A stretch of DNA of 59,384 nucleotides, filler included, from Circinaria calcarea (Eukaryota), in the NCBI GenBank assembly GCA_051942165.1. It is 6 parts of 6 records of this genome, joined end to end, with 100 filler letters (N's around TTAATTAATTAA, not from the genome) between each part and the next. Parts side by side here need not be neighbours in the genome. Positions count along the whole stretch, not along the records: positions 1 to 9,844 come from JAVECS010000883.1; 5 more parts are not named here. One strand, written 5' to 3'. Of the stretch, positions 904 to 1,329 are shown piece by piece. The notes below the pieces were generated by a model. That model did no database searches, was not told the origin of the DNA, and worked only from the letters and a program-made list of their open reading frames with translations. A program made the position numbers and the translations under genes. Within the stretch, counting starts at the first letter, position 1; every line of letters begins with the position of its first letter.

Positions 904-1329
904 CTATATGGTTGGCTCATCTGTGAACCATGCGTAGGCAATGGCCTCGTCGGCGTCCTCCTCGGCCTCTGCTGAGCGTTTGCGAGTCGATGCGGGCTCT
1001 TCGGTGAACCATGCATAGGCAATGGCCTCGTCGGCGTCTTCTTGAGCTGCTAAGGATCGTTTACGGGTCGAGGTCTGCTCTTCGGTGAACCAGGCGTACG
1101 CAATAGCCTCGTCTGCATCCTCTCCGGTCTTCGTTACTCGTTTGGAAAAGGTGTCAACGAGTCGATTATCCCGTTGGGTTAGTGACTCGACTCCCTCTAC
1201 AAACATTTAGGATATTGATTTGAATAGTCCTAAGCGGAGTACCTTACCAATGCCAGTATTCTGAACGGGGAGAGCATAGCTGCAAATGCTCAGAAGTGAG
1301 GCCGACAAAATGAAGAGTGAGGAACGCAT
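904..1329 (-). CDS. Kex2-processed repeat protein / candidate dikaritin-type RiPP precursor, 124 aa, two exons (1329-1248, 1196-904)
   Basis: Exon 1 encodes signal-peptide-like MRSSLFILSASLLSICSYALPVQNTGI. A GTAAGG...TTTGTAG intron (1247-1197) joins it in frame to ORF 904..1206. Three EDADEAIAYAWFT units at 81-nt period, each preceded by a KR/RKR site. Directly adjacent to two DUF3328 genes. Confidence 0.9.
922..1122 (-). repeat. Three coding repeats (39-nt cores at 922-960, 1003-1041, 1084-1122; period 81 nt)
   Basis: Direct comparison of the three copies: identical 13-aa translation, only synonymous differences. Confidence 0.95.

Follow-up and report, generated by a model that had tools for sequence, protein, structure and literature searches.

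The window analysed here, a stretch of 59,384 nt (filler included) joined from six records of the Circinaria calcarea genome assembly GCA_051942165.1, carries near its left end a short minus-strand gene that we describe as the candidate precursor of a UstYa/DUF3328-dependent peptide made by the ribosome and modified after translation (RiPP). C. calcarea is a lichen-forming fungus (Megasporaceae, Pertusariales, Lecanoromycetes). The gene consists of exon 1 (1329..1248), a 51-nt GT..AG intron (1247..1197) and exon 2 (1196..904); once the intron is removed, the 82 and 293 nt of the exons form a frame of 375 nt (124 codons and a stop). The resulting protein of 124 residues is identical letter for letter to an NCBI model (P0001, 'MAG: hypothetical protein Q9187_004462 [Circinaria calcarea]'). 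Exon 1 terminates in phase 1, after P-V-Q-N-T-G-I and one G. In a plain list of open reading frames (ORFs) the same region appears as a 100-residue ORF (1206..904), whose ATG lies within the intron, and a separate 40-residue ORF (1329..1207), which has a signal-like start and a stop inside the intron. The N-terminus of the spliced product comprises Met-Arg, a hydrophobic run of 11–12 residues (best 9-residue Kyte-Doolittle mean of 2.52, at residues 5–13) and then S-Y-A19, with small residues at −3 and −1. Other full-length members of the precursor family described below begin with the same Met-Arg/hydrophobic/small-residue pattern, and the N-terminus is conserved in P0002, in P0005 and in the two metagenome loci L001 and L002.

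The remainder of the protein is dominated by repeats. KR sites at residues 46–47, 73–74 and 100–101 delimit three units, predicted to be released by Kex2, of 27, 27 and 23 residues, and Tandem Repeats Finder reports a single array over 914..1122 (period 81, 2.6 copies, 79% matches, no indels, score 250). To see how the units differ, codons were compared over the three unit pairs, both in the 15-codon block E-D-A-D-E-A-I-A-Y-A-W-F-T-[ED]-E and in the five codons upstream of it. The block has 16 synonymous and 2 replacement differences (7/0 for units 1 and 2, 6/1 for units 1 and 3, 3/1 for units 2 and 3), the five upstream codons 2 and 13 (0/5, 0/5 and 2/3, in the same order). The peptide block has thus stayed constant while its DNA and the linkers drifted, which indicates that selection acts on the repeat and that it did not arise by a recent duplication. 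When all six frames of the window were searched for A-[YH]-A-W, only the three precursor units matched. With its predicted secretion signal and its tandem units parted by dibasic sites, the protein has the sequence features that define KEX2-processed repeat proteins (KEPs), and its KR-bounded units would correspond to the repeated core units of the UstYa-type precursor class. An acidic structural repeat protein was also considered and rejected, because the protein's size, the way its KR sites are spaced and its enzyme context tell against it; Ste13-type trimming at X-Ala pairs was set aside as well, there being no consistent X-Ala register from the KR sites to the block.

The initial annotation, made before this analysis, had proposed that splicing out 1247–1197 yields a full precursor with a signal peptide and three KR-delimited repeats. 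All three elements stand: the frame is open, the product is the one in NCBI and the position and phase of the intron are kept in L001/L002; the N-terminus is signal-like by rule of thumb, with a pattern conserved in relatives; and three KR sites delimit the repeats, the expected '25-27-mer' Kex2 products being close to the predicted unit lengths. That the precursor is 'hidden by an intron' is true of the ORF track, where the exon-2 ORF and the signal ORF are separate, and not of GenBank; since the GenBank model already has the splice, the gene is hidden only from the ORF track.

We scanned 12 ORF pieces near the precursor with Pfam, out of 38 in the whole window (pieces of about 90 residues or longer), and obtained two PF11807 (DUF3328/UstYa) genes beside it (Table 1). 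The exon model of the first, UstYa-1, reproduces exactly the NCBI protein P0035, whose locus tag adjoins that of the precursor; the two genes are divergently transcribed, with 704 bp between their ATGs. The second, UstYa-2, lies about 1.8 kb from the precursor and gives PF11807 matches on all three of its ORF pieces (3.8e-10, 6.1e-5 and 3.1e-19); its model, the sole open GT..AG solution under the limits set, is a prediction with no annotated counterpart compared. Each protein has one transmembrane segment (residues 40–58 in UstYa-1, 59–77 in UstYa-2) and two HxxHC motifs (HQLHC and HMRHC in UstYa-1, HELHC and HVEHC in UstYa-2), and both genes lie within 2.8 kb of the precursor. The two proteins are 24% identical and are old paralogues, like UstYa and UstYb. 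According to the available part of PMC12048977, a 2021 review treated the HxxHC-bearing DUF3328/UstYa protein as the enzyme that defines the class; two genes of this kind stand near the precursor, and their adjacency is kept in L001/L002. Past UstYa-2 come a gene for an integral membrane protein with a Fung_rhodopsin domain and, 3.3 kb past UstYa-2, a gene of the PF00891 family. The latter, conserved in the block described below and assigned by its Pfam type, is a candidate for the methyltransferase of the narrow definition of a dikaritin cluster (Ding et al., as quoted in PMC12048977), which also names a tyrosinase and a transporter or peptidase. A zf-AN1 gene occupies the left end of the window, on the precursor side.

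Table 1. Features of the candidate precursor locus, in positions of the window
Feature	Position	Strand	Description
Precursor exon 1	1248..1329	-	82 nt; ATG at 1329; signal-like residues 1–19 (1329..1273) and start of the propeptide
Precursor intron	1197..1247	-	51 nt, GTAAGG...CTAAAT...TAG; read-through gives a stop after 13 more codons
Precursor exon 2	904..1196	-	Remaining propeptide to K46-R47, three repeat units, stop at 906..904
Repeat unit 1	1057..1137	-	Residues 48–74, 27 residues, ends in RKR; invariant block D54..W63 at 1119..1090
Repeat unit 2	976..1056	-	Residues 75–101, 27 residues, ends in RKR; invariant block at 1038..1009
Repeat unit 3	907..975	-	Residues 102–124, 23 residues, C-terminal, no KR; invariant block at 957..928
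UstYa-1 (DUF3328)	2034..2807	+	Exons 2034–2247, 2305–2403 and 2467–2807; 217 residues; PF11807 at 1.8e-22
UstYa-2 (DUF3328)	3143..4114	-	Exons 4114–3715, 3652–3534 and 3442–3143; 272 residues
Fung_rhodopsin-domain (PF20684) integral membrane protein	5432..6941	+	Multi-exon; Pfam 5.7e-31 and 3.6e-4; ends are approximate ORF-piece limits, ATG likely near 5558
PF00891 (Methyltransf_2, O-methyltransferase-type) gene	7416..8951	+	Multi-exon; Pfam 4.2e-21; ends approximate; last gene of the conserved block

The same set of genes is found in a second fungus. Of 525 pattern matches obtained by scanning metagenome contigs with the family alignment, two were confirmed as loci, L001 and L002, which are 99.4% identical over 14.4 kb and are therefore counted as one independent case. 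Both encode a single-unit relative of the precursor in which signal peptide and unit are joined only once a 52-nt intron is removed (read-through stops); this intron sits at the same codon and in the same phase as that of the window, after P-V-Q-N-S-G-I and one G. Precursor, UstYa-1, UstYa-2, Fung_rhodopsin protein and methyltransferase follow one another in the same order and relative orientation as in the window, with amino acid identities of 34–75% (tblastn); the Fung_rhodopsin-domain orthologue is 58–69% identical and the methyltransferase orthologue 61–73%. The flanks are of another kind. Beyond the precursor, L002 has genes for a major facilitator superfamily (MFS) transporter, a cytochrome P450 and a type III polyketide synthase, and beyond the methyltransferase an RNase T2 gene, while the zf-AN1 ORF of the window and an ORF past the methyltransferase gene (9947–10693) have no tblastn match in L001/L002. 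Given that the order of the five genes is the same and that both flanks differ, these five genes travel together. The five-gene block contains neither a transporter nor a peptidase gene, an MFS gene being present only beside the L002 copy. The MFS, P450 and polyketide synthase genes of L002 (11706-19097) could form an abutting second cluster or supply extra tailoring enzymes.

A word-index search for relatives of the precursor returned three proteins at E ≤ 0.01 among 647 candidates: P0001 itself, a Pleopsidium flavum protein and an Annulohypoxylon moriforme protein. Longer multi-repeat forms were found in none of 2301 candidates (218–2000 residues) at E ≤ 0.1, which is weak evidence of their absence. 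Run against 1.84 billion representatives, a profile built from the three proteins retrieved 22 proteins at E ≤ 1e-3, 5 of them at E ≤ 1e-10, with Monosporascus sp., Xylaria hypoxylon, Apiospora saccharicola and a second C. calcarea gene (P0018) among the further named members. By taxonomy look-ups, the named hosts of the family are Lecanoromycetes (two subclasses) and Xylariomycetidae. The proteins have 1 to 4 units, separated by KR or RR in most multi-unit relatives, and share the invariant block D-x-D-[DE]-A-[VI]-A-[YH]-A-W. When units are anchored on D-x-D-[DE] only, 53 of them can be counted in 24 non-redundant proteins, one degenerate P0022 unit that has no such anchor being left out. After the anchor, position 1 is A in 52/53 units, position 2 is I or V in 53/53, position 3 is A in 51/53, position 4 is Y in 50/53 and H in the other 3, position 5 is A in 52/53 and position 6 is W in 53/53, whereas position 7 is variable, with 8 different residues. 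This count replaced one of 78 units in 34 proteins, which we rejected, as its pattern fixed four positions and its set included 10 near-identical cluster members. The tails that follow the Trp differ by lineage (FTEE, FAED, VVGP, AVDA, AVTE, KSLE and KSFEE).

Several members of this family deserve a separate mention. P0018, the second protein named C. calcarea, has a single unit and 67 residues, and its gene lies on another contig (locus tag 004310, compared with 004462 for the precursor). In the subfamily formed by P0019 and P0026-P0033, His takes the place of Tyr (A-V-A-H-A-W) and each of the three units has a different tail (KSLE, TGFK and VSFN in P0019); it occurs on numerous contigs, at most 426 kb long, that come from several sources. 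P0005, which comes from assembled public reads (contigs of at most 1475 bases), is a full-length relative in which the signal peptide and the unit are already joined, at the same junction as in the precursor (K-G-I-D). It may derive from a spliced transcript, and would then be indirect evidence of expression in a relative. P0024, a close relative of P0005, is an exon-2-only ORF.

The enzymes beside the precursor show a comparable distribution. A search with UstYa-1 gave 28 proteins at E ≤ 1e-10 among 719 candidates; the top 13 score 159–466 bits and the next one 114. Eleven of these 13 are named: Circinaria, Schaereria, seven Xylariales and two Chaetomium, the rows of Xylaria, Ustulina, Hypomontagnella and Daldinia being ones that we take to belong to the Xylariales and Annulohypoxylon being placed there by a taxonomy look-up. 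In a maximum-likelihood tree of the 28 proteins and UstYa-2 (29 rows, rooted for drawing only), the top 13 and a Pyrenodesmia row form one clade of 14/29 rows with a support of 99/98. Within this clade are three named Lecanoromycetes, a Sordariomycete group (Xylariales and Chaetomium) supported at 100/100, and other rows; outside it, branches are long. The taxa of the UstYa-1 clade match those of the precursor family, namely Circinaria, Pleopsidium, Annulohypoxylon, Monosporascus, Xylaria and Apiospora.

These comparisons bear on two further proposals of the initial annotation. It had compared the gene with UstA/PhomA-type precursors, a likeness now supported by the two PF11807 neighbours, by the five-gene block in a second fungus and by a family of relatives. 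It had also divided each unit into an acidic leader, a hydrophobic or aromatic core and an acidic follower (TEE/TDE), and had suggested searching an alignment of homologues for invariant residues. The alignment did provide such residues, D-x-D-[DE]-A-[VI]-A-[YH]-A-W, so that the acidic stretch and the core A-[VI]-A-[YH]-A-W are conserved. The follower, however, is not: elsewhere in the family it reads VVGP, AVDA, AVTE or KSFEE, and since the residues after the Trp vary across the family, an acidic follower is specific to a lineage.

Our interpretation draws on the gene structure, the repeats and the selection acting on them, the two UstYa neighbours, the block in the second fungus and the family motif: with a probability that we put at roughly 70%, the gene encodes the precursor of a UstYa/DUF3328-dependent, that is dikaritin-type, RiPP. 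The 124-residue protein would enter the endoplasmic reticulum (ER) by means of its N-terminal signal peptide, which would be cleaved likely after S-Y-A19, and a Kex2-type protease of the Golgi would then cut after K46-R47, K73-R74 and K100-R101, releasing peptides of 27, 27 and 23 residues. The two UstYa oxidases, predicted to be membrane-anchored and to face the lumen, would recognise the acidic D-x-D-[DE] stretch and oxidatively cross-link side chains within A-[VI]-A-[YH]-A-W, where the alternating Ala residues would place Ile/Val, Tyr/His and Trp on one face, as for Tyr-x-Ile in ustiloxin and phomopsin. Given that Tyr can be replaced by His and that Trp never changes, a link through the Trp is more likely to be the constant one. 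Exopeptidases would subsequently trim the flanks, the PF00891 methyltransferase would add a methyl group, and the product would be exported, the Fung_rhodopsin-domain membrane protein possibly aiding export or self-protection.

Several considerations weigh against this interpretation. The splice of the precursor mRNA is a prediction from the gene model and from comparative conservation, and the ER signal peptide is predicted by rule of thumb only. No member of the tyrosinase family was found in the 38 ORF pieces of the window or in 19 L002 ORF pieces (about 90 residues or more), so that one feature of the original definition of a dikaritin is missing. The methyltransferase is, by its Pfam match, of the O-methyltransferase type, and a relation to UstM/PhomM is not implied. 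The precursor and UstYa genes are adjacent at the DNA level in two independent fungi only, that of the window and that of L001/L002. Annulohypoxylon moriforme has a relative of the precursor (P0003) and one of UstYa-1 (P0040), each reported on a contig of 799,320 bases, and from these equal sizes we infer that they share a contig and make a third case. Synteny between two possibly related lichen fungi could, moreover, partly reflect shared ancestry, though the flanks differ. Finally, the modified residues, the boundaries of the core and the roles of the membrane protein and of the methyltransferase are all points that we purely infer.

Other explanations have to be weighed against the same observations. 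The gene might encode an ordinary KEP, which would release three linear, unmodified peptides with a signalling or other extracellular role while the UstYa neighbours serve another substrate. A signal-like N-terminus and KR-delimited repeats do make up the whole definition of a KEP, and KEPs are widespread, most of them having no known modification according to the available parts of PMC7329392 and PMC9769878. We nevertheless consider this explanation unlikely: in the second fungus the flanks are different on either side and yet the precursor is still accompanied by both UstYa genes, the two distant fungal groups that have the UstYa-1 clade are also those that have the precursor family, and the six-frame search offers the enzymes no other A-[YH]-A-W candidate substrate in the window. 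It is also conceivable that the gene is a silent or decaying remnant, with an open frame and a GenBank model that are artefacts of annotation, as might happen in a metagenome-assembled genome, which the source is by the name of P0001. Three observations make this very improbable: synonymous differences outnumber replacement differences in the repeat block; signal peptide, splice site and frame are intact and conserved in the second fungus; and there are 22 relatives in two classes of fungi.

A subtler difficulty concerns the part of the unit that becomes the product. Many RiPPs combine a conserved recognition sequence with a variable core. The precursor might accordingly be of the UstYa type with the invariant block acting as a leader-like recognition element, the product being the variable stretch after the Trp or overlapping it in part. 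The constancy of the block next to tails that vary by lineage (FTEE, FAED, VVGP, AVDA, AVTE, KSFEE) is what such an arrangement would give. Several of the tails (TEE, AED), however, lack the kinds of residue that this enzyme family is known to cross-link, and in P0019 the tails differ between the units of one protein, which would be unusual for a multi-copy core. Furthermore, in characterised relatives the core is conserved and directly follows an acidic ED (ED and then YAIG in UstA, in the available part of PMC6514808). Hence we regard a product located after the Trp as improbable, and retain the reading in which the cross-links would form within the invariant block of a dikaritin-type precursor.

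The locus can be compared with several known systems; here and below, statements on these systems refer to the parts of the sources that were available. According to PMC6514808, UstA carries a signal peptide as well as YAIG cores set between ED and KR, with 16 units reported; in the ustiloxin pathway Kex2 is believed to make the first cut, and the Tyr-Ile macrocycle requires ustQ, ustYa and ustYb, while in the asperipin-2a pathway AprY alone is needed for the two rings. The present locus shares with those of ustiloxin and phomopsin, the founding dikaritins (UstA/PhomA, UstYa/UstYb or PhomY, UstQ/PhomQ and the N-methyltransferase UstM/PhomM), a signal-peptide precursor with tandem KR-cut units, an acidic pair directly before a short hydrophobic or aromatic core with an aromatic-x-branched spacing, a pair of DUF3328 paralogues that have diverged and adjoin the precursor, and a methyltransferase within the cluster. 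It differs from them in that neither the ORF pieces of the window nor those of L002 yielded a tyrosinase, that the Trp is invariant and the Tyr replaceable by His where the founders have Y-[AV]-I, that the family has only 1–4 units compared with the 16 reported for UstA, that the methyltransferase is of the PF00891 type and can be set beside UstM/PhomM by family type only, and that the conserved block contains no P450, flavin-containing monooxygenase (FMO), pyridoxal phosphate (PLP) enzyme or S41 peptidase.

The asperipin-2a cluster of Aspergillus flavus (aprA, aprY, aprR and aprT) resembles the present one in being compact and in having a DUF3328 oxidase without a tyrosinase, with side-chain macrocycles proposed on an aromatic-rich repeated core. 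It has, however, a single UstYa gene instead of two diverged ones, a reductase and a transporter in place of the methyltransferase and the Fung_rhodopsin-domain protein, and an unrelated core (FYYTGY). The epichloecyclin cluster of Epichloe festucae (gigA, gigB, gigC and kexB; PMC10540207) also belongs to a symbiotic fungus and has a DUF3328 cyclase and a methyltransferase along with a small precursor whose several units are cut at KR; there too, the number of units varies between species, single-unit genes included. In the same source, gene disruptions associate GigB (DUF3328) with cyclisation, and GigC is shown to methylate. The methyltransferase found here is of the PF00891 type, whereas GigC is a lysine N-methyltransferase with a SET domain; the Epichloe cluster has a kexin gene of its own, of which no counterpart was seen here, and the core sequences are unrelated. 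Since no tyrosinase was found, the chemistry of the C. calcarea product would be closer to the asperipin-2a and epichloecyclin routes, which do without a tyrosinase, than to the ustiloxin route.

Among lichen fungi, Pasinato and Singh 2025 (PMC12048977) surveyed 111 genomes, reporting that UstY genes with HxxHC motifs are widespread and describing two clans of Parmeliaceae; in its available part, this source did not find a repeated precursor in either of these conserved UstY clans, and 'Circinaria' has 0 occurrences in its main text. Like its Clans R1 and R2, the present locus is a Lecanoromycete cluster with two HxxHC-bearing DUF3328 genes, and like Clan R1 it includes an O-methyltransferase gene. 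Clan R1 itself is described as restricted to Parmeliaceae and as having an upstream tyrosinase, an FGE-sulfatase and an O-methyltransferase gene that sits between its pair of signature genes. Here, by contrast, no tyrosinase or sulfatase was found, the O-methyltransferase gene lies beyond UstYa-2, the source is a Megasporaceae and a repeat precursor is present. The likeness to KEPs (Le Marquer 2019, PMC6339444; Umemura 2020, PMC7329392) consists of the secretion signal, the tandem units and the dibasic sites; KEPs are, however, a structural category that implies no function, while this precursor is tied to UstYa genes. Strings of the family motif matched only unrelated words in the literature searched, a scope outside which lie the precursor list of Ding et al. 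2016 (PNAS) and the supplements of PMC12048977, and had 0 occurrences in the supplement text of PMC7329392 and PMC6339444, long files that are possibly incomplete. Within these limits the motif family is undescribed, while the kind of system is well known.

The locus offers a lichen cluster that is concrete, compact and conserved and whose precursor is explicit. Potent tubulin-binding mycotoxins (ustiloxins, phomopsins) are among the UstYa/DUF3328 peptides, few of which have been characterised. The family motif links lichen fungi with Xylariales and predicts which residues would be modified, namely Ile/Val, Tyr/His and Trp. Because a short phase-1 intron parts the signal peptide from the repeats, genes of this type can be missed by ORF-based or automated searches. 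More tentatively, and with odds that we place well below even, the motif family might represent a structurally new class of UstYa peptides, defined by an obligatory cross-link of the invariant Trp to Ile/Val and/or Tyr/His and not by the Tyr-oxygen ether that, to our knowledge, is common to all characterised dikaritins. Such a class would be tyrosinase-free, would rely on a dedicated UstYa pair and would be shared by lichen-forming Lecanoromycetes and Xylariomycetidae, perhaps via cluster transfer; with its member described here, a precursor would then be defined for a lichen RiPP for the first time.

Elsewhere in the window the genes look like housekeeping ones, with a few features worth recording. 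Paired runs of 44 N's, 12 bases apart, come back at intervals of about 9.9 kb (9845-9944, 19777-19876, 29695-29794, 39605-39704 and 49504-49603); P0001 and P0035 are recorded on a contig of 9844 bases, which is the length of the stretch that precedes the first of these runs. The ORF at 9947-10693 (minus strand, about 250 residues), next to the methyltransferase gene, matches no Pfam family and, having no counterpart in L001/L002, probably lies outside the cluster. A large multi-exon gene for a hybrid histidine kinase (14404-18990, minus strand) has GAF, HisKA, HATPase_c and response-regulator receiver domains. A fungal ORF at 29194-29694 (minus strand) matches the catalytic domain of Tle1-like phospholipases of the type VI secretion system (PF09994, 7.4e-23). 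Finally, a short-period, coding-like repeat at 58490-59180 shows runs such as I-A-N-D / I-A-D-G when read in one frame, and both of its strands contain open frames.

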